In this document: positions 8,276-32,348 of the stretch, one piece after another
How positions within the stretch are numbered: position 1 is the stretch's first letter
How the letters are laid out: every line of letters begins with the position of its first letter
Assembly (NCBI GenBank): GCA_965249325.1
Contig: CBDFLP010000019.1
Span: 24,950 to 88,949 of the forward strand
Direction of reading: 5' to 3'
Source of the DNA: Dehalococcoidia bacterium
Lineage (GTDB): Bacteria > Chloroflexota > Dehalococcoidia > Lucifugimonadales > Australimonadaceae
DNA: 64,000 nucleotides
Program-made: the position numbers and the translations under genes
The notes under the pieces: model-generated
The model's database searches: none
Seen by the model: the letters and a program-made list of their open reading frames with translations, nothing else
What the model was told of the DNA's origin: nothing

Positions 8276-9673
8276 GTGAAGAGTCTCCGCTTCGGCGCGC
8301 TGGCTGTCCTGCTCCTGTTCGCGTCATCCACGCCTGCGAGCGTCTGGGGACAGGAGCCGCTCCTCGTAGTCCGCGACGAACAGACGCTGGACTTCCCGAA
8401 CGCCATCACATTCGAGCTGCGCGCGAGCCCGCCGACCGCCATCGAGAGCGCAGAGGTCCGCTACCGCGTGGACTCGCTGAGCTGCGGGGCGGCGGTCGCG
8501 ACGGGGATAGCCGATCCGCCTCTCCCGTCTGCGGGAGAAGCCGCGGGGGAGGCCGCAGCGGCGGAGAGCGGCTCCAAGGGCTTTGCCGCGTCGTGGGAGT
8601 GGGACCTCCGCGAAAGTGGCGGGCTGCCCGTGGGCGCGTCGGTCACGTATCACTGGCGTCTCTCCGGCGGCGGCCGCGTCTTCGAGACCAAGGAGCGGAC
8701 GTTCGTCTACGAGGACCCACAGCATGACTGGCGTGTGCTCGACGGAGAGCGCGTAACGCTGCGCTGGAGCAACGGGGACGAGGCCTTCGCGCGGGACCTG
8801 CTCGAAACGGCTGACGCCGCCGTGGAGCGCCTCGCCGAAAGCACGGGCGTGACGCCCGACCGCAAGATAGGACTGCGAATCTACGAGGACACGGATGCCC
8901 TCAGAGATGCGTTGGTCTTCCCCGGCGAGTACACCGGCGGGATCGCCTACCCCAGCTACGGCCTGACGGCCATAGGCATTAGCCCCTGGAACGTCGTCTG
9001 GGGCAGGCGCGCTATCGCGCACGAAATGACCCACGTTGTGATCGGCCAAGCCGCCTTCGCCTGCGGGGCCGATATACCTGCGTGGCTCCACGAAGGGCTC
9101 GCGGTCTACAATGAAGGCCCCCTCCAAAGCAGCTTCGAGCGCTCGCTTTCGTCGGCGATAGAGGAGAAGCGCGTCTTTCGCCTGGGAAGCATTGCGGGGG
9201 CATTCCCTGCCGACGAAGAAGGCGTCACGCTCTCGTACGCACAGAGCTGGAGTGTGGCCAACTATCTCATCGAGACCTACGGGGCCGACCGGATGAACGC
9301 CCTCCTAACCGCATTTCAGGCGACCGGCAGTATCGAGCAAGCGCTCACCGAGGCTTACGGTTTCGGGAGGCTGGGCCTGGAGAACCGGTGGCGCGCGAGT
9401 CTTGGCTTGCCGGAGCTGCCGCCCCTGGCCATCCCCGCGCCCCGCATGCCAGAGATACCCCCACTCACGCTGCCCACTCCCAACGCGCCCGCTCCGGCTA
9501 CTCCAACATACACGGCCCCTGCCACGCCGACGCCGTTCGCGGCGGCCACGCCTACTCCGCCTGCAAGCGGCGCAGGCTGCAACAGCTCAGGCGGCGCCGT
9601 GTCCGGCCTCGATGGCGCCCTCGCAGTGCTCCTCATCGGAGGAGCCGCCGCCTCACTCCGGAGAACTGTATGA
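8276..9673 (+). CDS. Secreted/anchored peptidase MA-like zinc metalloprotease
   Basis: Signal peptide MKSLRFGALAVLLLFASS. HEMTH..EGLAVYNEG (HExxH+E), a Pro/Thr-rich linker and a C-terminal TM helix. Confidence 0.65.
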   Translation: MKSLRFGALAVLLLFASSTPASVWGQEPLLVVRDEQTLDFPNAITFELRASPPTAIESAEVRYRVDSLSCGAAVATGIADPPLPSAGEAAGEAAAAESGSKGFAASWEWDLRESGGLPVGASVTYHWRLSGGGRVFETKERTFVYEDPQHDWRVLDGERVTLRWSNGDEAFARDLLETADAAVERLAESTGVTPDRKIGLRIYEDTDALRDALVFPGEYTGGIAYPSYGLTAIGISPWNVVWGRRAIAHEMTHVVIGQAAFACGADIPAWLHEGLAVYNEGPLQSSFERSLSSAIEEKRVFRLGSIAGAFPADEEGVTLSYAQSWSVANYLIETYGADRMNALLTAFQATGSIEQALTEAYGFGRLGLENRWRASLGLPELPPLAIPAPRMPEIPPLTLPTPNAPAPATPTYTAPATPTPFAAATPTPPASGAGCNSSGGAVSGLDGALAVLLIGGAAASLRRTV

Positions 9674-11712
9674 CGCGCCTCGTCCTCCTGACCATCGCGC
9701 TGCTGACGGCGGCTGCCGCATGCTCCGGCGACGCGGACCCGACGCCAAGCCCAACGCCGACTGCGAGCGCCTACCTGACGTACACGAACGAGGTCCACGG
9801 GTTCACGTTCGAGCATCCCTCAGCCTGGACGTCCGCGCCTGCCCCAGCCAACGGCCCCCTGCTCATCCTGAACAGCGGGACGCTCCAGCTATTCGCCTCG
9901 AGCTACTTCTCGCCGAGCGACAGACCCCTCAGCGAGCGGCTGAACGCCGCCATCGAGCTGGTCTCGGCCACGCTGGACAACCCGCGCGTCGAGGGGCGCA
10001 GAAACGTGGCCCTCGGGGACGGCGCCGCCGCGGAGCGCGCGGACATCGTTCATCGCAGGGAAGGCGCAGACGCTGTGGCGCGTCTGCAGATTGCCCAACG
10101 CGGCCCGCGAACCTTCCTCCTGACGCTCACCGCTCCCGCAACCGAGCTGGAGCGCCAAAGCGAGACCGCCGAAAGGGTGCTGTCTAGCTTCCTCAGCTTC
10201 CCGGCCGCGCCGTTCGAGGTCTCGCGAGACCGGTCGCTCACCATGCCGTGGAGCGACCCCCTTACTCTCGATCCCGCCGTCACTCGTGAGTCCGGTTCTC
10301 ACTTCATCGTCAGTAACGTCTTCAGCGGCTTGGTCCGGTTCGACGCCGACCTGCGGGTGCAGCCCGACCTGGCCGAAGCGATACAGGTGGACGGCGCGGG
10401 CACGGCCTACACCTTCACGCTCCGCGCCGACGCCAAGTTCCACGACGGACGCGCAATCACAGCGGACGACGTGAAGTACTCGCTCGAACGCGCGGCAGAC
10501 CCCGAGCTCATGAGCGATACGGCTGTCCTCTACCTGAGCGACATCGTCGGCGTGCGCGACAAGCTCGAAGGGCGAGCGGAGGAGATCTCGGGCGTCGAGG
10601 TCGTGGACTCGCGCACCGTGCGCCTCACGATTGACGCGCCGAAAGCCTTCTTCCTGGCGAAGATGACGTACCCCACCGGCGCAATCGTGGATAGGCGAAC
10701 TGTCGATTCCGGCGGGGTCGAGTGGTGGCGTAGCGACGTGAATGGCTCCGGCCCGTTCAAGCTCCGCGAGTGGACTGAGGGCGAGGTCCTCATCCTCGAA
10801 CGATTCGACGACTATCACGCCCCAAGCTCATTGGGGCTGGCGGTCTTCCCCATACTCCAGGGCGTGCCGATGCAGATGTACGAGTCGGACGCCGTGGACG
10901 TTGCCCTCATCGGCGGGTCGAACGTGGATAGGGCGCTCGACCCGGTCAGCGGGCTCGCCGACCAGCTGGCCGTCTTCCCCCAGCTCAACACCTTCTACCT
11001 TGGGTTCAGGGCGCGGGAAGCGCCGTTCGACGACCCCTTGGTCAGACGCGCCTTCGCGATGGCCGTGGACCGAGAAGCTCTGCTCGAAACGGTGTATGGC
11101 GGGCGGAGGAGCCTCGCCGCCGGGCTGCTTCCTCCGGGCATGCCGGGCTACTCGGCCGACCTGACAGGCATTCCCTACGATCCCGAGGGCGCCCGGGCAT
11201 TGCTGGCGCAGTCGCAGTACGCGGCGGATTTCCCCCCAGTCCTCTACACGACGGCTGGTTCGGGGGAGGTCCCGGCGGACGCGCAGTTCATCGTGGGCGC
11301 TTGGGAAGCCAACCTGGGCGTCGACGTGGAAATCGAGCTCGTCCCACCCGATGCGTACTTCTACCGGCTGGACGAGCTGGCGGGGAACATCTTCGACTAC
11401 GGTTGGGCGGCTGACTACCCTGACCCCGAGAACTTCCTGGACCTGCTGCTGCACAGCGAGAACCGAAGCAACAACATCGGAGGCTATAGCAATCCCGAGT
11501 ACGACCGCCTGCTCGAGCGCGCTCGGGAGCCGGACTGCGAGACGCGCATGGCTCTCTACGCCGAGGCCGAGGAGCTGCTCATAGCGGACGCGGGAATCAT
11601 CCCGCTGTTCCACTCGCCGGACTACGTTCTGATAAAGCCGCACATCCAAGGCTTCATCATCGAGCCCTTCGGCGCCCCTTCCCTCGGAGACGTTATCGTC
11701 CTGCCCAAGTAA
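9670..11712 (+). CDS. ABC transporter substrate-binding lipoprotein (peptide/nickel family 5) with an extra N-terminal domain
   Basis: ATG 9670 overlaps the upstream stop (ATGA). Lipobox LLTAAAAC-S, then ~170 aa of an unrelated domain, then a family-5 SBP body (FTLRADAKFHDGRAITADDVKYS). Confidence 0.75.
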   Translation: MTRLVLLTIALLTAAAACSGDADPTPSPTPTASAYLTYTNEVHGFTFEHPSAWTSAPAPANGPLLILNSGTLQLFASSYFSPSDRPLSERLNAAIELVSATLDNPRVEGRRNVALGDGAAAERADIVHRREGADAVARLQIAQRGPRTFLLTLTAPATELERQSETAERVLSSFLSFPAAPFEVSRDRSLTMPWSDPLTLDPAVTRESGSHFIVSNVFSGLVRFDADLRVQPDLAEAIQVDGAGTAYTFTLRADAKFHDGRAITADDVKYSLERAADPELMSDTAVLYLSDIVGVRDKLEGRAEEISGVEVVDSRTVRLTIDAPKAFFLAKMTYPTGAIVDRRTVDSGGVEWWRSDVNGSGPFKLREWTEGEVLILERFDDYHAPSSLGLAVFPILQGVPMQMYESDAVDVALIGGSNVDRALDPVSGLADQLAVFPQLNTFYLGFRAREAPFDDPLVRRAFAMAVDREALLETVYGGRRSLAAGLLPPGMPGYSADLTGIPYDPEGARALLAQSQYAADFPPVLYTTAGSGEVPADAQFIVGAWEANLGVDVEIELVPPDAYFYRLDELAGNIFDYGWAADYPDPENFLDLLLHSENRSNNIGGYSNPEYDRLLERAREPDCETRMALYAEAEELLIADAGIIPLFHSPDYVLIKPHIQGFIIEPFGAPSLGDVIVLPK

Positions 11713-19205: not shown

Positions 19206-19216
19206 CGGACCACCCG

Positions 19217-20098
19217 TTAGTGAACGACCGCGGCCTCGTAGCTGAGGGCGCCTGCCTGATCAGCTGGAAAGAGGCCGTGCAGCATCATCCAACGGTGAGT
19301 CCGCTCGAATACCTCCGGGGTATACGGTTCGAACACGAGCCGCTCCCCAATCCCGCATCGCCGAATATCCAGCATGGAGTGGTACTTCTCCGGAAGCTCG
19401 TCTAGCAAGTAGTGCTTGTACCGCTCAGGCTCGACATCGATGTCGCGCTGGGCCCGTCGCAGAGCGCGAAAGTACTTCGCGGCATCCTCGTCCGTTGCAG
19501 TGTCCTGGCCCAGGAATCCGATCATGAACGAGGTGTCGACCACCTTTCTGAACCCCTGCTGCTCGAGGACATAGACCGGCGTGCCGAATACGTTGGCCGC
19601 CTCGACACGCCGGTCCAGCATCAGCTGCAGCCTGTCCAGCGCGCCGCCTACGAACTGTAGCTCCACGTGCTCGGGACCCAGCAGCGGTTCGAGCGCTTGG
19701 AGTGCTGAGAAGTGACTGCCCGAGTGATAGCCAACCGCGACTGGGACATCGGCAAGGTGCTCTGGAGCCGTAATCAAAGACTCGGCCGGTGCCCACACGT
19801 CGGCCGGCGTGACGGAGTAGGCATGGCCCCACATGCGGCCATGGTGAGCGCTGGCGGCCATGCCGACCGCCCAATGACACGCGGAGCTCACGTCGCAGGC
19901 CCGGCCCGCTTCCATCGACTCGAACGCGCCGCGCTTCACTTCCGCCGGCGCAACCTCCGTCGAATTGACGGACGGGTTCCGCGACCCCTCGTTCGAGGGT
20001 CTGAACTCGTAGTCCAAACCCTCGGCGGTGAAATAGCCGTTCTCTTCGGCCACCCACTCCTGAAGCCGGGAATGGGGCTGAATGATGAATGTTCCCAT
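19217..20098 (-). CDS. NMT1/THI5-like (periplasmic-binding-protein fold) cytoplasmic protein
   Basis: 293 aa with no signal peptide. Sits 11 nt downstream of the SagB-type gene on the same strand. Family assignment by eye, weak. Confidence 0.4.
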   Translation of the reverse strand: MGTFIIQPHSRLQEWVAEENGYFTAEGLDYEFRPSNEGSRNPSVNSTEVAPAEVKRGAFESMEAGRACDVSSACHWAVGMAASAHHGRMWGHAYSVTPADVWAPAESLITAPEHLADVPVAVGYHSGSHFSALQALEPLLGPEHVELQFVGGALDRLQLMLDRRVEAANVFGTPVYVLEQQGFRKVVDTSFMIGFLGQDTATDEDAAKYFRALRRAQRDIDVEPERYKHYLLDELPEKYHSMLDIRRCGIGERLVFEPYTPEVFERTHRWMMLHGLFPADQAGALSYEAAVVH

Positions 20099-20277
20099 AG
20101 CGGCGCCTCTCAGTCTGGTCCGGCTCTACTTGCGACGCCCATGCTACGACTGGCCAGGTGCGCCCGCAACGAGGACGTCACCCAACCGGCCATGGGCGAC
20201 CATCTTGCCAAAGGCGCATTCGGTCAGCCACCTCAAGACCGTTGCAGGGCAGTGGGCCGTCAGTCCTGCGACTGCGC

Positions 20278-20380
20278 GGTTGTCTCGTCCTTTGGCATCC
20301 GGTAAACCGACGCGAGGCTCGGTGAAGATGTAGGTGGGGTTGTCCGCGTCGTTGCCCAGCTTGCGGCCAAGGTTCCAACT
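20278..20380 (-). pseudogene. Remnant of an OmpR-type response regulator C-terminus
   Basis: Minus strand reads LGRKLGNDADNPTYIFTEPRVG and then, in another frame, YRMPKDETT. This matches the winged-helix tail LRxKL..P.YI.T.RGvGYR. Confidence 0.35.
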
Positions 20381-20406
20381 ACGGTGCGCAGCGGCCGCAG
20401 GTAGGC

Positions 20407-20757
20407 CTAACGGTGTGACAGTATGTTGATGAGCTTACCGTAAGGGTCACGGACGTAGAACCGGCGAACGCCCCAGGGTTCGTCCTTCAGAGAATAGACG
20501 ATCTCGAATCCGGCAGTACGCATTCGGCGATATGCCGTATCGACATCGTCAACTTCGATTGAGAGGTCCGGGACCTCCGTTCCGGATCCTCCTTCGGTGG
20601 CGATGCTGATCTGCACCGGGGCGTTCGTGCCGGAGGAGAGAGTCATGATCCATCCGAGGTCCATCACGACCTCAAGGCCCAAGACATCCCAACAAAACCC
20701 CCGTGCGTCCTCGATTCGGTCCACGGCGATGTTTGGAACAACGCGTTTAATCTCCAT
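20407..20757 (-). CDS. VOC/glyoxalase-family protein
   Basis: Start MEIKRVVPNIAV preceded by GGAGG-5 nt. Ends PWGVRRFYVRDPYGKLINIL. Confidence 0.7.
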   Translation of the reverse strand: MEIKRVVPNIAVDRIEDARGFCWDVLGLEVVMDLGWIMTLSSGTNAPVQISIATEGGSGTEVPDLSIEVDDVDTAYRRMRTAGFEIVYSLKDEPWGVRRFYVRDPYGKLINILSHR

Positions 20758-20892
20758 TTCGTCCTCCATGCGGAATTGTGGCTGGGCCTGAAGGCTCACC
20801 AAGGTCAGCCGGGACGATGGAGCGGTGGTATGCCGCAGCAAACTCCGGTGCGGTAATTGCCCTACAGAGGGGCTCTGCATGTGTCTTACGAA

Positions 20893-20969
20893 TGGTGGGC
20901 CACCCTGGAATCGAACCAGGGACCTCAGTCTTATCAGGACTGCGCTCTAACCGACTGAGCTAGTGGCCC
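20893..20969 (-). tRNA. tRNA-Ile (anticodon GAU), intact
   Basis: Reverse complement reads GGGCCACTAGCTCAGTCGGTTAGAGCGCAGTCCTGATAAGACTGAGGTCCCTGGTTCGATTCCAGGGTGGCCCACCA. Confidence 0.9.
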
Positions 20970-21050
20970 ACATGACTCCCTGATTCTACAGGTTCAAGCA
21001 CTCGTTGTCCTTGGCTTTCGATAACAGCCTCCTTCGATGGCCGGCTTCAC

Positions 21051-21356
21051 CTAGAGCAACCGACCTTGGAGACCGTCCCCTATCGCGGCGAGCGGCGAAT
21101 AACGCCTGTGCTGGTCGAGGGCGCGCCGCCGGTCGAACGGGCGGTAGACCCTCAGCATCGCCCGGCGAGGTCCATCCCATGAGGCTCTGCAGCAGCGACT
21201 CGTCGCCAGCCCACAACCGAACGAATGTGTGCCTGAGCGTGTGAGCGCTGGCCCGCTTGCCCCCGATACCTGCCCGCCGAAACGCGGCCCGCACAGCCTG
21301 CCCGGCACCTCCAGGGGTGCGCCACGGCCAGGGGAGCACGCGCAGGACCTCAGTCT
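21051..21356 (-). pseudogene. Tyrosine recombinase (integrase) remnant, C-terminal ~100 codons only, frameshifted
   Basis: GKRASAHTLRHTFVRLWAGDESLLQSLMGWTSP in one frame and AMLRVYRPFD in the next. No N-terminal or box I region upstream. Confidence 0.6.
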
Positions 21357-22498
21357 CTACCACGGGCGCGAGTCGGGCGCAGGGATGAACAGGACGCCGT
21401 CGCTGCCGTTGTCGATCTCCTGGATCGCGTTGCCGGTGAGCTTGAGCAGGCGTCCGTTGCCCTGGTCGACGTACATGACGTTCCGCTCGGCGTCGTAGTG
21501 GGCGAACCGGTGCACCTGGACCTGCTCCCCTCGCAGGTGGGCCTCGACCTTGGCCTGCTGGATGACGAACTTGTGCCGGTGGTCCTTGGAGCTCAACCGG
21601 TAGCGGTCCGCGAGGAGGACGTCCATGTCGAAGCTGTCGACCTCGCATATCTGTTTGGTGTCGGCGTCGAAGAAGAAGTACCGGTTGTCCGCACAGATCA
21701 GCCGCCCGTGCTGGAGCAGGCCCCGCTCCACCATCTTGACCGCCAGGTCGTGGTGGGCGTTCCGCTCCGCCAGCTCGACGGTATGTCCCTGGTCCAGCCA
21801 GTCGGATACGTCGCCCTTCGGCGGGAGTCCGGGCAGCTCGAGCAGCTTGACCGACAGCGCCACCGGCCGCACCGACCCGCACACGTGTGAGCGTGCGCCA
21901 TCCCCGGCTTGTCATTGTCCGGAATGACGACGGCGCGCCGGTCACGGAAGAACCGCGCGTAGCCGAGCTTCCACCTGCCGGCCCCCTGGGGGTTCGTCGT
22001 CGCCGTGAGCCCGAGGGAGCGGAGACGGTCGACGTCCTTCTCCCCCTCGACGACGTACACCGGGCGGGCGGGGTCGGACGCCAGGAGCTCCGGCAGCCGG
22101 TAGGGGACCCGCCGGACGCGGTCCAAGCGCCACTCCCACTCGCCGGGCCGTGAGGGATGCGGCTTGCGCTGCCGTATCTCTTTCCCCGCGAACCGGACCA
22201 CCTGGAACAGGAGCGCGCCGGACTCGTCACGGTAGTCGTAGGCAGCATCGATGTCGATGGCGCGCGAGGTCCTGGTGGGAGCAGGGGCAGCGAGGCCGAA
22301 CAGTTCCGCGAGCTCCTTGAGGGACCATGCCTTGTCCTCGGCGTGGCAGTAGGCGTTGCCTTCCGGCCAGACCGTCATGGACGCTTTCTCATCGTCATGG
22401 AACGGACACCGCGTCGGCGAACCGCTGCTCCGCGGAGGCTTGGTCAGCCCGATCCGGTCGAAGACTAGGTCACGCAGGTGGGCTGGGGACTGGGTCAT
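21357..22498 (-). pseudogene. DNA primase (CHC2 zinc finger + Toprim), frameshifted near 21885..21900 and C-terminally truncated
   Basis: CPFHDDEKASMTV, VYVVEGEKDVDRL and VVIPDNDKPG in frame A. VKLLELPGLPPKGDVSDWLDQG continues in frame B. Confidence 0.65.
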
Positions 22499-22683
22499 GG
22501 CGCCGCCTGCTCCTGGGCCTGCAGCCAGTCGATCTCGTCGGCGAGGGCGGCTACGAGGTGCTTAAGGAAGGCGGTGTAGCCCGGGTCCCGGCGCGAGTTC
22601 TCGATGACCGAGCCCACCTCCTCGCGCGTGAGGCCCGTTGTGACTTCGAGGCGTTCATAGGTGCTGGCGCGTAGGACGGTCAT
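22495..22683 (-). CDS. Island small protein (62 aa)
   Basis: MTVLRASTYERLEVTTGLTREEV... Its ATG overlaps the stop of the upstream 40-aa ORF, and its stop overlaps the primase ATG (ATGA in both cases). Confidence 0.5.
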   Translation of the reverse strand: MTVLRASTYERLEVTTGLTREEVGSVIENSRRDPGYTAFLKHLVAALADEIDWLQAQEQAAP

Positions 22684-22802
22684 GCCGCAACTCCCCGGTG
22701 GTCCCGCCGGAAATGGACCGCCCAGTAATTGGCGGGGACCGGCATCTTGCATCGAGGACACCAGTCGGTACGCGTGTCGATGGGTCGCCATACGAGGGGC
22801 AT
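22680..22802 (-). CDS. Island small zinc-ribbon-like protein (40 aa, below the track cutoff)
   Basis: MPLVWRPIDTRTDWCPRCKMPVPANYWAVHFRRDHRGVAA. GGAGG lies 8 nt upstream, and there is an ATGA overlap with the next gene. Confidence 0.4.
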   Translation of the reverse strand: MPLVWRPIDTRTDWCPRCKMPVPANYWAVHFRRDHRGVAA

Positions 22803-22814
22803 GACCTGGACCTC

Positions 22815-23018
22815 CTACTTGATTTCGAGCTGGCGCGTGCGGGCGAACGCCTCCAGCTCGTCGAGGATCTGGGCCATTCCTTCCTTCTTCTTGCCCGCGC
22901 GCTCGCGCGGGGTCTGGATGCTCTTGGCCTGGATGAACCAGAGCACATCGCCCGCGCTCAAACCGTGCAACCCTTGGTCCCCGGCGAGCTCGTCCGAATC
23001 AGCTTGGCCGCGTTCCAT
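22815..23018 (-). CDS. Island hypothetical protein (67 aa)
   Basis: GGGAGGAG ribosome site 7 nt upstream of the ATG. Protein-like sequence. Confidence 0.5.
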   Translation of the reverse strand: MERGQADSDELAGDQGLHGLSAGDVLWFIQAKSIQTPRERAGKKKEGMAQILDELEAFARTRQLEIK

Positions 23019-23039
23019 AGTCCGTCTCCTCCCTACCAG

Positions 23040-23453
23040 TTACTCGCCATGCTCCTGGCCGTCCCAGCCGACATGGGTCGGGAACTCTGAGGGTTCTCGT
23101 CTGGCGGCTTCCTGAAGGAATGCATCGAGCTTGTCCCGTGAGGACGGCTGCCAACGGGGATGGGTGAACTGCGCCCGGTCCCAATCAAAATCGAAATACA
23201 CGCGGTCCCAGGTATCGCGGCAGCGGAAGCGGCCCTGCGGGTAGTGCTCGTACCAGACCAGCTTGTGAGGGGAGATGCGGTACAGGCGGCAGACCGCAGT
23301 CGCCAGGCCCTCCGCCATGTTGGTGACGCTCGTGCCGGGGTTGTCGTCGACCTCGGTAGCGACCACGACGGTGCATACGTCCGAGACCTCGGCGATCTCG
23401 ACATCGCACCACGGCTCGCAGCCTCTGAAACCGTTGAAGTGGAAGCGGCTCAT
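23040..23453 (-). CDS. Island hypothetical protein (137 aa)
   Basis: ATGA overlap with the upstream gene. Trp/Phe-rich, globular-looking sequence. Confidence 0.55.
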   Translation of the reverse strand: MSRFHFNGFRGCEPWCDVEIAEVSDVCTVVVATEVDDNPGTSVTNMAEGLATAVCRLYRISPHKLVWYEHYPQGRFRCRDTWDRVYFDFDWDRAQFTHPRWQPSSRDKLDAFLQEAARREPSEFPTHVGWDGQEHGE

Positions 23454-23686
23454 GCGCCCGCTGTCCTTCCTTCCCGCCGCATCCCCCGGAGGTTGAGCTC
23501 CTCCCTGACGTAAGGCTGGGCAGCCTCGCCGACGAACTCCTGCAGGTGGGGCTTCGTTATGAGCAAGGAGACCGCTGCGAGCTCCTCGTCAGTCAGCGGC
23601 CGAAGGCGTTTCAGCCATGCGGTCCGCCGCTTCGACTCAGCAGCCTGCTCGCGTTCCGTCCGTCTCCGGAGTGCGTCCGGCATCAT
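23450..23686 (-). CDS. Island hypothetical protein (78 aa)
   Basis: MMPDALRRRTEREQAAESKRRTAWLKRL... ATGA overlaps at both ends. This is the C-terminal part of the listed ORF 23450..24148. Confidence 0.5.
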   Translation of the reverse strand: MMPDALRRRTEREQAAESKRRTAWLKRLRPLTDEELAAVSLLITKPHLQEFVGEAAQPYVREELNLRGMRREGRTAGA

Positions 23687-24071
23687 TCCCCCTCCCCATC
23701 GCCGGCGAGCCCATCCCCAACGGCCCGGCGCTGGAACGGGATGATCCCCTGTTCCCGGCGCTTCTCCGCGGCGCGCTGCGCCCGTTCGCTCCGGCTGCGC
23801 TTCAGGATGGAGGCGCGATGCGCGTAGAGGGCCTCCATCACCTTCGTCGGGAGGTAGAGGCGGACCGTCCCCTCGGGCGTTATCGCGTCGATGAAGCCGT
23901 GCCAGCCGTCTTCCGTCCGGCAGGTCTCCACGACGAAGGTGGAGACTGCGTTGACGATAGGCACGACCTGCTTGATCGTGCTCTGGCTCCGGGTAAGCCC
24001 GGCAGGCCGTCGATGGAGCCTCGTACGCGGTCCATGAGCGGTTGGCGGTCGATGACGTACTGGTCAGGCAT
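23683..24071 (-). CDS. Island hypothetical protein, possibly frameshifted near 24000
   Basis: MPDQYVIDRQPLMDRVRGSIDGLPGL (from 24071) continues best as TRSQSTIKQVVPIVNAVSTFVVE.. in the frame of ORF 23683..23964. Alternatively a 93-aa product from GTG 23964. Confidence 0.4.
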
Positions 24072-24146
24072 GGCGTTCCCCCACGTGAGGCTTGGTAGCG
24101 CCTCGCCAGGGAACGTCCCGGCGCCTGAGGGTGCCGCGCCTCAGAC

Positions 24147-24177
24147 AAAAAAGTAGGCGCCCCCGACGAGGCGCCTA
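24147..24177 (-). terminator. Intrinsic terminator inside the island
   Basis: Minus strand reads TAGGCGCC-TCGTCGGG-GGCGCCTA followed by CTTTTTTG. Confidence 0.55.
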
Positions 24178-24204
24178 TAGTATTTTACTAGGTCTAGTAG
24201 ATTG

Positions 24205-24585
24205 TCAACAGGTGGTCAATGGCCTCTTGGGCCGTCCTGGCTTCACGCCCTTCGCCACCTCGCGCGCGACATCGCGGTCGTCGACCAGGACCGCCCCGCC
24301 AACCTCCGCGATTATCTTGACAGTGCCGTACTTCCGCGCCCACAACCAGACCGTGCGCATAGCAACGCCATGCTTCTTGGCGGCACCGGCCATGGAGATT
24401 GGCTCAGCGCCGTCAGGCCAAGCGCCGTTTGTCGTCTCGGGTTCGGCCATCGTCCCAGATTCTGAGATCGCCTGGGTTGCCATGATTTCGCTTTCCAGTT
24501 CTGCAACACGCTTGCGCAGGGCTGCGAGTTCAATCTCCTTGCGGAGTGACTCACTCTCTGCTACTGCCACTGACGTTTTGGTCAT
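24205..24585 (-). CDS. HTH DNA-binding protein (excisionase/MerR-like) with N-terminal coiled coil
   Basis: GGGAGG ribosome site. ISMAGAAKKHGVAMRTVWLWARKYG helix-turn-helix. Starts 26 nt from the partial tRNA copy. Confidence 0.55.
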   Translation of the reverse strand: MTKTSVAVAESESLRKEIELAALRKRVAELESEIMATQAISESGTMAEPETTNGAWPDGAEPISMAGAAKKHGVAMRTVWLWARKYGTVKIIAEVGGAVLVDDRDVAREVAKGVKPGRPKRPLTTC

Positions 24586-24611
24586 GTGGGCCTCCCAAGG
24601 TGCGCGGGTGG

Positions 24612-24668
24612 ACCAGGGACCTCAGTCTTATCAGGACTGCGCCCTAACCGACTGAGCTAGTGGCCCAC
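24612..24668 (-). repeat. Partial tRNA-Ile copy (positions 1-55 plus 2 nt of 5' flank), island junction
   Basis: 56/57 identical to 20915..20971. The mismatch 24643 C versus 20946 T falls in the D-stem. It diverges from the tRNA inside the T-arm. Confidence 0.85.
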
Positions 24669-24805
24669 GCCATGCGACTCTCAGTATAGACCAACCGCCA
24701 AGCCCATAGCAGACCGCCGCTCTTCCGAGGAGGTGGTGGCGCGAGGCCGGCGGGCCCTCTAAAAGGCGAGAGGCCAGCAGCGGGGCTGGCCTCTCGGGCA
24801 GGGCG

Positions 24806-24833
24806 CCTTAACCGGTGAATAGTGGAAGGAAAG
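24806..24833 (-). other. 16S processing-stem, 3' strand
   Basis: CCTTAACCGGTGAATAGTGGAAGGAAAG is the reverse complement (27/28) of 26556..26583, which flanks the other side of the 16S. Confidence 0.7.
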
Positions 24834-24977: not shown

Positions 24978-26484
<1,507 letters not shown>

Positions 26485-26555
26485 TTTTTGGGTCTCAAGA
26501 GACCCATTTTGTCAGATTGACAAAGGGTTGCATGCCCCTAAGGGGCACGCAGGCG

Positions 26556-26583
26556 CTTTCCTTCCACTATTCACCTGTTAAGG
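26556..26583 (-). other. 16S processing-stem, 5' strand
   Basis: Complementary to 24806..24833. Lies between the candidate promoter and the mature 5' end. Confidence 0.7.
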
Positions 26584-26616
26584 AGCGACTCAATCCCCCC
26601 GGAGGGGAACCTAACC

Positions 26617-31441: not shown

Positions 31442-31521
31442 GCCGTCCTCCCATCCCCAGTATACGGCGGACGAGGGAGGCGCTCAATCAAAGACCAGGG
31501 GCGAGGTGGCGCGGGGCAACG

Positions 31522-31949
31522 TCAGTCCGTGGGGATAACGAACTCTGCCCGGCCCGAAGGGCCATCGTACGTGAGGACACAACGTTGCATAACATCCATG
31601 CCCAGGATGGACGGCACAGACGACGTGGCTGATTCCCCGGATGCTCGATGGCCGAGAAGGATGGAGTCTATCTCGCACCGCCGCCAGGCTCCGGCATCTT
31701 GATCTAGAACGTATAGGACCGCGCGCCCGCAATCCCTATGAGCTCGGCATCCTCGGAAAGCGTCTGCGACTGTTCAGACGGCACAATGTGTGCCCAGTCT
31801 CTTGGATGCAGTGCAGAAGATGCAGCTCCCGTGTCAATCAGCATGTTGACGCGGGAGCCCTTGGAATAAGCGGGCAAGTACACGTAGACCGGCAGCCACA
31901 AGGCAACGGAGGTCGGCGTTTGACGGACTACGATTGTGGGGCGCGCCAA
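31522..31949 (-). pseudogene. Retropepsin-like (clan AA) aspartic protease, split by a frameshift near 31700
   Basis: N-part has VNMLIDTGAASSALHP (D-T/S-G) and stops at 31704. Another frame continues CEIDSILLGHRASGESATSSVPSILGMDVMQRCVLTYDGPSGRAEFVIPTD to the stop at 31522. Confidence 0.55.
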
Positions 31950-32245
31950 TGGCCTAGCATCCAGAGCGGTTCCTGGGCAGTGATGAGTTCTCGAACGGCG
32001 AGGCCCTTTGAGTCATCGGTCTTATTGAGCTCTCGAATGAACTTATCGAGACTCGCTTCATGGGCAATAACCCGTTCGTTCCTGACCGCCACCCACTGCT
32101 CCGGGTAATGCTGCAGAAGCGATTCCTTGTTCTTGTGGAACCAATCCCAGTCGCGCTGGGACTGCGCCCACTCTTCTAGCGTGGGTAGAACCCCCTTCGG
32201 TCCCGAGTTCCACGAGTCGTCGGCCGTCTTGCGCGCAGTAGCCAT
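31928..32245 (-). CDS. Small DUF5678-like protein
   Basis: MATARKTADDSW.. with LLQHYPEQWVAVRNERVIAHEASLDKFIRELN. Family name recalled from memory. Overlaps the protease start. Confidence 0.45.
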   Translation of the reverse strand: MATARKTADDSWNSGPKGVLPTLEEWAQSQRDWDWFHKNKESLLQHYPEQWVAVRNERVIAHEASLDKFIRELNKTDDSKGLAVRELITAQEPLWMLGHWRAPQS

Positions 32246-32348
32246 CACGCTCTCCCATAGTCCCTGCCTCCGCTTACTATAGCCTATGGCAATGTGGTGA
32301 GCTGTCCCCAGCAGGGACGGCCTGGATCGCATCTCTGCACTACCATCG

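Follow-up and report, generated by a model that had tools for sequence, protein, structure and literature searches.

The question raised by this locus was how a copy of the 5' part of a tRNA-Ile gene came to lie beside a 16S rRNA gene, with the intact tRNA gene on the far side of a block of other genes. A 64-kb stretch of DNA (the window) from a Dehalococcoidia bacterium was analysed. Read along the minus strand, the order was 16S rRNA, partial tRNA-Ile copy, 3,640 bp of co-oriented genes and intact tRNA-Ile, as follows.

24981..26485, minus strand: 16S rRNA gene (Rfam SSU_rRNA_bacteria, 1513.8 bits, full length)
24612..24668, minus strand: attL, tRNA-Ile(GAU) positions -2 to 55 with one mismatch (repeat search; homology of relatives ends at 24612)
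20893..20971, minus strand: attR repeat and intact tRNA-Ile(GAU), the tRNA itself at 20969-20893 (ARAGORN; Rfam 70.3 bits)

ARAGORN and Rfam both called a single tRNA-Ile(GAT) in the window, at 20893-20969 on the minus strand. The attL copy was called by neither and is not a functional tRNA. The direct repeat comprised 57 nt (20915-20971 versus 24612-24668), and its 1 mismatch is in the D-stem, where the 16S-proximal copy has G instead of A. In 100 shuffles no comparable match was found. A search for the 32-nt tRNA 3' part, with up to 3 mismatches allowed, found only that of the intact gene in the window. The intact tRNA sequence was 100% identical in L080, L043, L066, L069, L126 and L291. The partial copy started approximately 313 nt from the 16S 3' end, a spacing shared by the relatives (309 nt in L080). 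The 16S gene was flanked by a 31-nt inverted repeat (24803-24833 and 26556-26586), probably a processing stem, and every island ORF was on the minus strand, in the same direction as the 16S. A preliminary description of this DNA had stated that an intact tRNA-Ile and a 57-bp partial copy bracket about 3.6 kb, that the copy lies about 315 nt past the 16S 3' end, and that the island is co-oriented with the rRNA and parts the 16S from the only intact tRNA-Ile of the window. Each of these statements was upheld.

Six close relatives with flanks 93 to 99% identical each contained one intact tRNA-Ile and no insert, and their homology stopped exactly at 24612. The insert is therefore lineage-specific and precisely bounded. 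Conservation of the 3.6 kb in all relatives would have spoken against an inserted element; all six sites were empty, with the breakpoint at 24612. An element entered the tRNA-Ile(GAU) gene after an unlinked 16S through site-specific recombination. The insert is what remains of this integrase-bearing mobile element; genomic islands of its kind are well known, though the layout here is less common. The following features were assigned to it.

24205..24585, minus strand: 126-aa ORF, candidate excisionase/regulator, first gene after attL (PHROG 66 'excisionase and transcriptional regulator', E=5.6e-5)
24154..24177, minus strand: terminator-like hairpin of 10 pairs downstream of the first gene, followed by CTTTTTTG (terminator scan)
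22495..23964, minus strand: six small ORFs (ORF list), namely
23964-23683, minus strand: ORF of 93 aa
23686-23450, minus strand: ORF of 78 aa
23453-23040, minus strand: ORF of 137 aa
23018-22815, minus strand: ORF of 67 aa
22802-22680, minus strand: ORF of 40 aa
22683-22495, minus strand: ORF of 62 aa
21357..22498, minus strand: primase pseudogene with CHC2-like zinc-binding region and Toprim (Pfam, PHROG, homologue alignment)
21051..21372, minus strand: C-terminal ~100 codons of a tyrosine recombinase (PF00589, PHROG integrase, family alignment)

The first gene started at 24585, 26 nt from the junction, with GGGAGG 5 nt ahead of its ATG. Its product comprised a coiled-coil-like N-terminal segment and an HTH-like C-terminal segment. 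No Pfam HTH model was significant (HTH_23 only, E=0.22), and among 5.8 billion proteins no homologue was found except the protein itself. For the earlier label of an HTH/Xis-like gene, the position and the excisionase match stood, but the HTH assignment did not reach significance in Pfam. Four ATGA overlaps (23686, 23453, 22683 and 22498, the last joining the 62-aa ORF to the primase) and several GGAGG sites were read directly from the island sequence, as previously described. The six small ORFs had no Pfam or PHROG matches. The ORFs of 93, 137 and 67 aa, the three that were looked up, were each a singleton cluster at 90% identity; a homologue of the 137-aa ORF, 49.5% identical, was located in L124 directly upstream of a related primase.

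The primase matched CHC2 weakly (E=0.002-0.003) and PHROG DNA primase at 1.3e-20. When stitched at ~21885, its frames (380 aa) aligned unbroken to residues 32-414 of a 655-aa homologue (P0001), so the gene is frameshifted and lacks ~240 C-terminal residues. Homologues were 590 to 660 aa with PF01807 and PF13481, and the absent part corresponded to the C-terminal ATPase/helicase. Viral contigs often contain this primase domain, with at least 554 loci in IMG/VR. The recombinase remnant was frameshifted near 21160 and retained the motifs HTLRHTF, GW and VYRPF, without the Arg-I and Lys regions. Its stitched 102 aa matched PHROG integrase (6e-9) and PF00589 (E=9e-4, profile positions 113-166 of 172). 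These results agreed with the preliminary description, in which a decayed island with a frameshifted, truncated primase and only the last ~100 codons of a tyrosine recombinase had been recognised. Because the integrase is without its N-terminal two thirds and the primase without its helicase part, the element is dead and no longer mobile. Originally it carried genes for a tyrosine integrase and a phage-type primase-helicase, together with small ORFs and an excisionase-like regulator. No second copy of the element was found in the databases searched, so attP could not be read directly.

P4-like satellites and PICI-like elements are small islands in which a fused primase-helicase provides the sole replication function, alongside an integrase, an excisionase/regulator and short, overlapping ORFs. 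We presume a resemblance to these in gene set and size class, as a lead only; it is a likeness of layout rather than of demonstrated sequence relationship, and no packaging or helper-interaction genes were recognised.

Rfam detected no 23S in the window, and none was present downstream of the locus in relatives over ~8 kb or more (L125, L126, L128, L129) or ~1.5 kb (L080). The locus is therefore an unlinked 16S-tRNA-Ile and not an ITS spacer, and the earlier 'spacer tRNA-Ile' label was abandoned. A hairpin and a -10-like box were conserved between the 16S and the tRNA, and a promoter-like site was present upstream of the intact gene.

24761..24795, minus strand: host terminator-like hairpin between 16S and tRNA-Ile (sequence reading, conservation)
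24683..24688, minus strand: host TATACT box, candidate native tRNA-Ile -10 element (conservation)
20983..21011, minus strand: promoter-like AGGACA-17-TAGAAT in the element-derived flank (promoter scan)

The hairpin comprised an 11-bp GC-rich stem and a 6-nt loop followed by GCCTTTT, was kept in L125, L128, L080 and L126, and lay in a 51-nt segment with an MFE of -28.6 kcal/mol. It was missed by the consensus terminator scan because its T-run is short. The TATACT box lies 16 nt ahead of the tRNA 5' end and now precedes the partial copy; it was invariant in five close sequences and was also seen in L043, L066 and L069, which are more distant. Across 125 tRNA-Ile genes (same anticodon arm, mostly Chloroflexota), TANNNT boxes were enriched in the upstream interval -25 to -16, and the TATACT box is the predicted native -10 element of the tRNA-Ile gene.

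The intact tRNA is at the integrase-proximal end, behind element DNA. The host spacer and TATACT box have stayed with the partial copy, in accordance with the island-derived upstream flank proposed earlier. In this flank TAGAAT started 19 nt before the intact tRNA, a position that fits the enrichment of -10-like boxes. AGGACA-17-TAGAAT had 9/12 matches, and 2 such sites were found versus 0.6 expected. The flank had no significant similarity to the ~125 native tRNA-Ile upstream regions compared, and hence no direct trace of host capture.

Full-length members of the integrase family were 269 to 354 aa, and the remnant aligned to their C-terminus. Identity to the last ~90 residues of most full-length relatives was 57 to 69%, and to L140 and the end-cut L143 it was 49 to 60%. 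At 12 of the 13 closest integrase loci the integrase gene was followed by a co-oriented tRNA 3' fragment (Asp-GTC, Gly-GCC or Glu-TTC) running from the anticodon stem/loop to CCA, which identifies the family as of the anticodon-loop type. No intact tRNA was present at those 12 loci. The remnant belongs to the same family as classical anticodon-loop elements (L131-L142; 'A' sublocation, Williams/Islander). Shared features were the order of integrase, att block and first gene on one strand, and an att block containing the anticodon stem-loop. In contrast to these relatives, which had only the 3' part of tRNA-Asp, -Gly or -Glu, the integrase-proximal copy here is a complete tRNA-Ile and the distal att copy is without the tRNA 3' part. 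An SSV-type split integrase, to which the locus is similar in having only part of an integrase gene beside the att site, was also considered and rejected: the remnant ended 82 nt before the repeat, fused to the truncated primase inside the island, and full-length relatives have attP outside the integrase gene.

Beyond the intact tRNA, the window also differed from its three closest relatives (L125, L128, L129) by a further segment.

19216..20892, minus strand: segment X, 3' of the tRNA, with a glyoxalase-family gene and a 293-aa gene (relatives' comparison, Pfam)

Segment X (glyoxalase Pfam match 3e-10) was missing in those three, in which the tRNA was followed after 35 nt by a nitroreductase gene (window 19222). 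The junction of the 293-aa gene and the nitroreductase gene was common to L127, there in another context beside a transposase. Segment X is probably an event separate from the element. A single element of ~5.4 kb (24611-19216), with tRNA-Ile and the glyoxalase-family and 293-aa genes as cargo and the host tRNA destroyed, would account for a difference from these relatives over that entire interval and for the lower GC content around the glyoxalase gene. This was considered improbable: neither a tRNA 3' fragment nor the 35-nt host flank was found at the 19216 end or elsewhere in the window, two further deletions would be needed, L127 has the junction without the element, and the 57-bp direct repeats already delimit a complete integration product. 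Still poorer prospects were given to a chimeric join or collapsed repeat that made one of the copies. The window is part of a metagenome-assembled contig (398,707 bp), the island genes were found in no other contig, and the frameshifts are possibly sequencing errors. A misjoin, however, would not give a precise 57-bp target duplication that encloses an integrase remnant and an excisionase-like gene and is itself bordered by host flanks, and the primase and integrase truncations are hundreds of codons long and so not homopolymer errors. Ancestral presence with precise excision in all six relatives was regarded as just as implausible. Excision via the repeats would yield exactly the empty site seen, but the insert was absent from the six relatives and from the more distant L043, L066 and L069, and the element is without a working integrase.

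The remaining choice concerned the attP, and a pentamer next to the break was relevant to it.

24607..24611, minus strand: CCACC directly after the break, equal to tRNA positions 71-75 (sequence)

The best explanation, given about even confidence, is a dead element with a whole-tRNA attP, an anticodon-loop crossover, a later 16-nt deletion and a hybrid tRNA with a predicted promoter. The attP would have had its own promoter and would have included tRNA-Ile sequence from either side of the anticodon loop. Most likely it would have been a complete tRNA-Ile gene, perhaps acquired via an earlier imprecise excision. Crossover in the anticodon loop, as for the integrase's relatives, would have produced two full tRNA copies. 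Deletion of 16 nt (positions 55-70) from the redundant 16S-proximal copy, together with one substitution, would then have given it the appearance of a '5' fragment'. The surviving tRNA would be a hybrid, its 5' half and promoter from the element and its 3' half from the host, and the putative promoter AGGACA-17-TAGAAT would drive its transcription in place of the 16S promoter or the host TATACT box; the latter would now point into the tRNA stub and the first gene of the element. A whole-tRNA attP with deletion is slightly favoured over true 5' polarity because 12/13 relatives carry anticodon-loop 3' fragments, because the partial copy runs into CCACC, and because the identity block is two-sided (33 nt 5' and 17 nt 3' of the anticodon loop), an extent not needed by a one-sided restoring block. 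As judged from sequence, CCACC is at most suggestive of a tRNA 3' terminus left by the deletion, and the match was noticed post hoc. Among island pentamers, 0.58% coincide with any of the three terminal tRNA pentamers and 2.7% with any 3'-part pentamer. CCACC lay 21 nt from the first gene, resembling the 27 to 39 nt between CCA and first gene in L135, L136, L140 and L141. Because of the 16-nt deletion, the whole-tRNA reading takes one event more than a simple 5'-fragment attP. The ends of the proposed deletion had no microhomology, CCA was missing its terminal A, and a complete tRNA was absent from the att region of all 12 relatives that carry a tRNA fragment.

A true 5'-fragment island, as in the preliminary description, is possible but was rated lower. 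Its attP would consist of a promoter and tRNA-Ile positions -2 to 55, followed by CCACCCGCG; the host 5' part would be displaced beside the 16S, where the copy was never complete, and the rebuilt gene would combine the element 5' part with the host 3' part. It is the simplest account of the 57-bp repeats, the identity block stops in the T-loop, which is a frequent sublocation of crossovers, and the promoter-like site that it requires is present in the element flank. The layout is also documented. In Islander, 159 of 3,919 islands have a 5' fragment upstream of the restored gene, an arrangement accepted by its configuration filter, with size limits of 2 to 200 kb (Hudson, Lau and Williams 2015, PMC4383910); in PMC11476347, 9 of 88 tRNA-integrated elements of Sinorhizobium meliloti duplicate the tRNA 5' end and leave the tRNA intact. 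Against a 5'-fragment attP, the closest integrase relatives are of the 3'-fragment, anticodon-loop type at 12 of 13 loci. An anticodon-loop crossover would leave 11 to 12 nt of identity past the anticodon stem unexplained, a T-loop crossover would set the element's sublocation apart from its integrase family, and the CCACC that follows the break would have arisen by chance, at the frequencies above (0.6-2.7%).

The Islander 5'-tDNA islands likewise have an intact tRNA and a co-oriented fragment, the 5' part upstream of the restored gene, around an island with a tyrosine-integrase gene, and 3.6 kb is within the size range. Here, by contrast, the integrase is only a C-terminal remnant, the target is a tRNA-Ile after an unlinked 16S, and the 5'-fragment appearance may be secondary to whole-tRNA duplication and deletion. 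In the S. meliloti phage-related sequences att likewise matches the tRNA 5' end, but these belong to another phylum with other integrases, and promoter replacement is not mentioned in the excerpted text (PMC11476347). Of the earlier claim that identity covers the 5' instead of the usual 3' part, the repeat over -2 to 55 was confirmed, whereas the layout was already catalogued as a minority; the element joins a known island type in a less common arrangement, and its apparent 5' polarity may not reflect integration chemistry.

The 3,640-bp island is real and was mapped precisely. The features of its locus lie in the following order.

27320-26655, minus strand: thymidylate kinase gene, first in order
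26485-24981, minus strand: full-length bacterial 16S rRNA gene (Rfam, 1513.8 bits)
24668-24612, minus strand: 57-nt copy of tRNA-Ile(GAU) positions -2 to 55
between the partial copy and the intact tRNA, every one on the minus strand: island ORFs, 3,640 bp
20969-20893, minus strand: intact tRNA-Ile(GAU) (ARAGORN; Rfam, 70.3 bits)

Reading of the sequence confirmed the coordinates and descriptions given for the island locus in the preliminary description. Direct reading showed a gene start at a distance of 26 nt from the junction, as well as GGAGG sites and the four ATGA overlaps. The two repeat copies differ by a single base, in the D-stem, where the 16S-proximal copy has G for A. A full-length tRNA gene and a fragment of it lie on one replicon and share an orientation, the arrangement by which Islander recognises an island (PMC4383910). 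Islander permits fragments that reach the tDNA end, either 5' ones lying upstream or 3' ones lying downstream, and excludes internal ones (PMC4383910); here, the fragment comprises tRNA positions 1-55 plus 2 nt upstream, lies 5' of the gene and reaches the tDNA end. A second copy of the tRNA 3' part was not found in the window. The classical 3'-fragment island was ruled out because this part is present in the intact gene alone.

Insertion was established from empty sites in relatives, the standard proof, which stands outside Islander's own criteria. An exact-pattern scan with the tRNA anticodon arm returned 120 loci, for the most part from Chloroflexota. In the Dehalococcoidia chromosome L080, a 95% match to the window extends from 29100 to 24612 exactly, after which the tRNA 3' part follows. 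Exact-protein look-ups that started from the clusters of thymidylate kinase and nitroreductase retrieved five further close genomes; these matched the window at 97.1% over 6.9 kb (L125), at 99.0% across the 16S and spacer (L128 and L129) and at 93.5% (L126 and L291). Homology breaks at 24612 in all six, each of which has the empty site, with a single intact tRNA-Ile approximately 310 nt past the 16S. The insert is also absent from the more distant L043, L066 and L069. Since the homology of all close relatives ends at 24612, the host upstream flank belongs to the partial copy. The DNA 5' of the intact tRNA-Ile is foreign. The inserted island with a foreign flank upstream of the intact tRNA, as first proposed, is thus borne out by six empty sites with a boundary exact to the nucleotide.

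The 16S end and tRNA-Ile are 134-642 nt apart in 48 of the 50 loci holding both; in the window, the intact tRNA-Ile is 4,012 nt from the 16S end. The outliers L047 (2.8 kb) and L006 (3.8 kb) were considered as similar islands and rejected, their content being unrelated and free of tRNA fragments. L047 is a Saccharibacteria MAG and L006 a MAG labelled as Gammaproteobacteria; their intervals contain protein-coding ORFs, with a P-loop protein in L047. In each of six other loci (L002, L063, L071, L098, L107 and L113), two or three intact copies of tRNA-Ile(GAU) share this anticodon arm. The copies are 350-430 nt apart in the Ktedonobacteria L002, L063 and L071 and follow the 16S in L063 and L071.

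For the first island ORF (126 aa), a candidate excisionase or regulator, PHROG 66 ('excisionase and transcriptional regulator') gave E=5.6e-5 and Pfam HTH_23 E=0.22. No homologue besides itself was found among 5.8 billion proteins. The three small ORFs looked up were singletons. A 63-aa ORF (23880-24071) has a good ribosome-binding site (GGGGGAAC, ATG at 24071) and overlaps the start of a 93-aa ORF out of frame; the two may be one gene split by a further frameshift. The 137-aa ORF, the exception among the three looked up, has a 49.5%-identical homologue immediately 5' of a related primase in L124, which alone among the island relatives searched has two adjacent island genes in common with the window. 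The contexts of the primase relatives P0005-P0007 are unrelated to the island.

The primase was recognisable (PHROG primase, 1.3e-20), with a weak zinc-binding CHC2 region (E=0.002-0.003) and the Toprim-type motifs VVEGEKD and IPDNDKPG. Its homologues are primase-ATPase fusions of 590-660 aa (ATPase, PF13481). The two primase frames, joined at approximately 21885, align with residues 32-414 of one such homologue (P0001, 655 aa); the gene is therefore frameshifted and approximately 240 residues short. It is not a complete bifunctional DnaG-type primase-helicase, since the P-loop ATPase part is missing and the frame is broken near 21885. The primase domain is very common among viral contigs (at least 554 IMG/VR loci), which makes the replication module one of phage or mobile-element type.

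The tyrosine recombinase is represented by its last third, a frameshifted C-terminal stretch of approximately 100 codons fused directly to the primase stop codon. It is recognisably integrase-derived (PHROG integrase, 6e-9; PF00589 profile positions 113-166 of 172, score 19.5 vs a cut-off of 27.1), and the island contains no intact integrase gene. The catalytic motifs HTLRHTF and GW and the tyrosine of VYRPF are kept. The family alignment places the DTGxRxxE (Arg-I) and GKxGxRxVPV (Lys) regions in the missing part, and the PF00589 catalytic set (Arg-I, Lys, His-x-x-Arg, His/Trp, Tyr) is incomplete. Judged by its sequence, the integrase is a non-functional remnant of a family member. The element is immobile and dead. 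The decay reported in the preliminary description accordingly stands for both genes, each frameshifted and each truncated. Profile searches also upheld its integrase (PF00589 weakly) and primase assignments; its HTH/Xis-like gene stands as a candidate, given the PHROG 66 match and no significant Pfam HTH model.

A 12-nt stretch, AGACTGAGGTCC (21345-21356), is identical to tRNA-Ile positions 38-49 and lies precisely where the truncated primase and the truncated integrase are fused, which is a striking place for it. Approximately 0.5 such matches are expected per window and this one falls within integrase-homologous codons; it is probably due to chance. An SSV-type split integrase, in which attP lies within the integrase ORF and the halves occupy both island ends, was rejected: the remnant ends at 21051, the repeat starts at 20971, and no integrase N-terminal part is present at the other island end.

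An exhaustive HMMER search placed the remnant in a family of 269-354-aa recombinases. An uncharacterised integrase family is hereby added (approximately 270 aa, motif LPWPW ... HTLRHTF ... GWTS ... VYRPY). Thirteen close integrase loci were collected by a metagenome scan with the family alignment. None of the 13 contained an intact tRNA; 12 carried a co-stranded tRNA 3' fragment after the integrase, running from the anticodon stem/loop to CCA. The fragments derive mostly from tRNA-Asp(GTC), with Gly(GCC) in L136 and Glu(TTC) in L142. Rfam at a relaxed threshold called nothing on the fragments of L133, L135, L136 and L140. Fragments were identified by parsing the anticodon loop, T-arm and acceptor end, and that of L136 was compared with a real tRNA-Gly(GCC). 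The next gene starts 27-39 nt after the fragment in L135, L136, L140 and L141. These 12 relatives have the classical anticodon-loop arrangement, and the family att blocks for tRNA-Asp, -Gly and -Glu can be read from the metagenome contigs. In the window, the block spans -2 to 55 and does not, as in the anticodon-loop (A-type) attP of these 12, run from the anticodon stem or loop to the 3' CCA.

Downstream of the family integrase in L131 (approximately 9375-9840), two tandem tRNA-Asp 3' fragments with identical 3' flanks lie approximately 370 nt apart. In L136 (approximately 8820-9210), the tRNA-Gly fragment is followed approximately 330 nt on by a different tRNA 3' fragment, again downstream of the family integrase. 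Both pairs look like stacked att remnants. Same-family integrase fragments that start near the start of the window remnant, just before LPWPW, were seen in locus L130 (154-459) and in proteins P0140 and P0144, with unrelated sequence upstream. A stand-alone small-protein family was rejected for fragments of the L130/P0144 type, as full-length relatives exist.

The tRNA-Ile had initially been taken for the spacer tRNA of an rRNA operon. That view was abandoned: no LSU/23S rRNA was found in the 64-kb window, in the relatives the tRNA is followed by protein-coding genes with no 23S after the locus as far as their sequence extends, and the order 16S - tRNA-Ile - 23S is thus absent. Unlinked rRNA genes have been described in Chloroflexi (bioRxiv 10.1101/705046). 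The 16S-tRNA interval (window 24683-24795) contains a conserved terminator-like GC-rich hairpin and T-run, and a TATACT box lies 16 nt 5' of the tRNA (of the partial copy in the window) and is also kept in more distant relatives. This region was compared across L125, L128, L080, L126, L043, L066 and L069. Ahead of 125 tRNA-Ile genes sharing the anticodon arm (mostly Chloroflexota), the interval from -25 to -16 is enriched in TANNNT boxes. Given the conserved hairpin and box and this enrichment, the tRNA-Ile probably has its own promoter; the hairpin and box, with no 23S nearby, suggest independent transcription of the tRNA in this lineage, whose 16S is unlinked. In front of the intact tRNA, the element-derived flank contains AGGACA-17-TAGAAT, with a -10-like box starting at -19, a plausible candidate for a replacement promoter.

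The 5' polarity of the repeat, put forward as unusual, was upheld in so far as the block covers the 5' part and lies upstream of the intact gene. The layout itself is not new and the island is of a known kind: placement of the 5' fragment ahead of the restored tRNA has been recognised as a minority arrangement, found in 159 of 3,919 Islander islands (PMC4383910) and in 9 of 88 S. meliloti elements (PMC11476347). It may also stem from later decay. We give an even chance to an attP that comprised a whole tRNA-Ile with its promoter and integrated via the anticodon loop. Integration would then have yielded two full tRNA copies, of which the redundant, 16S-proximal one would afterwards have lost positions 55-70. 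The identity block covers both sides of the anticodon loop, the integrase family is of the anticodon-loop type, and other deletions are seen at the locus. The CCACC after the partial copy corresponds to tRNA positions 71-75, a 0.6% coincidence by island pentamer frequencies, although it was spotted post hoc. Such a history needs one extra event, however, and the proposed deletion ends without microhomology. Whole tRNAs are absent from the att regions of all family members, and the flank on the element side is unlike every native tRNA-Ile upstream region compared (approximately 125); in a search for capture of a native tRNA-Ile promoter, the 60-nt element flank scored no higher than shuffles against any of them. 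The att core was also sought in viral contigs, with no matches. Alternatively, the attP may have carried a promoter plus no more of the tRNA than positions -2 to 55, with CCACCCGCG after them, which would make the 5' polarity genuine; we regard this as somewhat less likely.

Under either history, the 5' flank of the surviving tRNA-Ile is element-derived, as is probably its 5' half, and the host TATACT box now faces the tRNA stub and, beyond it, the 126-aa gene. We tentatively propose, at somewhat under even chances for the whole, that within an anticodon-loop integrase family otherwise restoring the 3' half, the element carried the opposite side of the target and a promoter, as a genuine 5'-polarity attP or as an entire tRNA-Ile gene that aberrant excision had captured together with its own promoter. 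It would have replaced the promoter and 5' half of possibly the host's only tRNA-Ile(GAU), separated this tRNA from the 16S locus and put its own first gene under the host tRNA promoter. If so, att polarity is not fixed inside one integrase clade and an essential tRNA can come to rely on a dead element's promoter.

The case is modest: a cleanly documented tRNA-integrated island in Dehalococcoidia with six empty sites and a nucleotide-level breakpoint. The restored tRNA-Ile stands behind element DNA and a predicted element promoter, away from its native flank; were it the genome's sole tRNA-Ile(GAU), an essential gene would now be reliant on a dead element's sequence. For annotation, such an island would be overlooked by tools that expect an intact integrase or the layout with a 3' fragment, and '5' polarity' can be mimicked when one of two complete tRNA copies suffers a small deletion.

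Genomes whose upstream sequence is 93-99% identical have three unlike tRNA 3' flanks, each beginning directly after CCA. In the window, a 1.68-kb segment (19216-20892; a glyoxalase-family gene, lower GC, and a 293-aa gene) precedes the nitroreductase gene; L125, L128 and L129 have 35 unrelated nt in its place; L080, L126 and L291 have an unrelated LVIVD-repeat gene. This suggests repeated recombination at the tRNA-Ile 3' end, and the 1.68-kb segment was treated as one or more separate events there. A single 5.4-kb element including the tRNA and this segment is unlikely because no att remnant was found at its far end (19216); the junction of the 293-aa and nitroreductase genes is also shared by L127, where it lies elsewhere, beside a transposase.

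At a further site in the window (31507-32348), a stretch of approximately 840 nt between the prolyl-tRNA synthetase gene and pdxS has approximately 120 nt in its place in L125, L126, L128, L129 and L291. Two small ORFs, of 134 aa and 81 aa, lie in this stretch on the minus strand, the latter with a DTGA motif as in retropepsin-type aspartic proteases.
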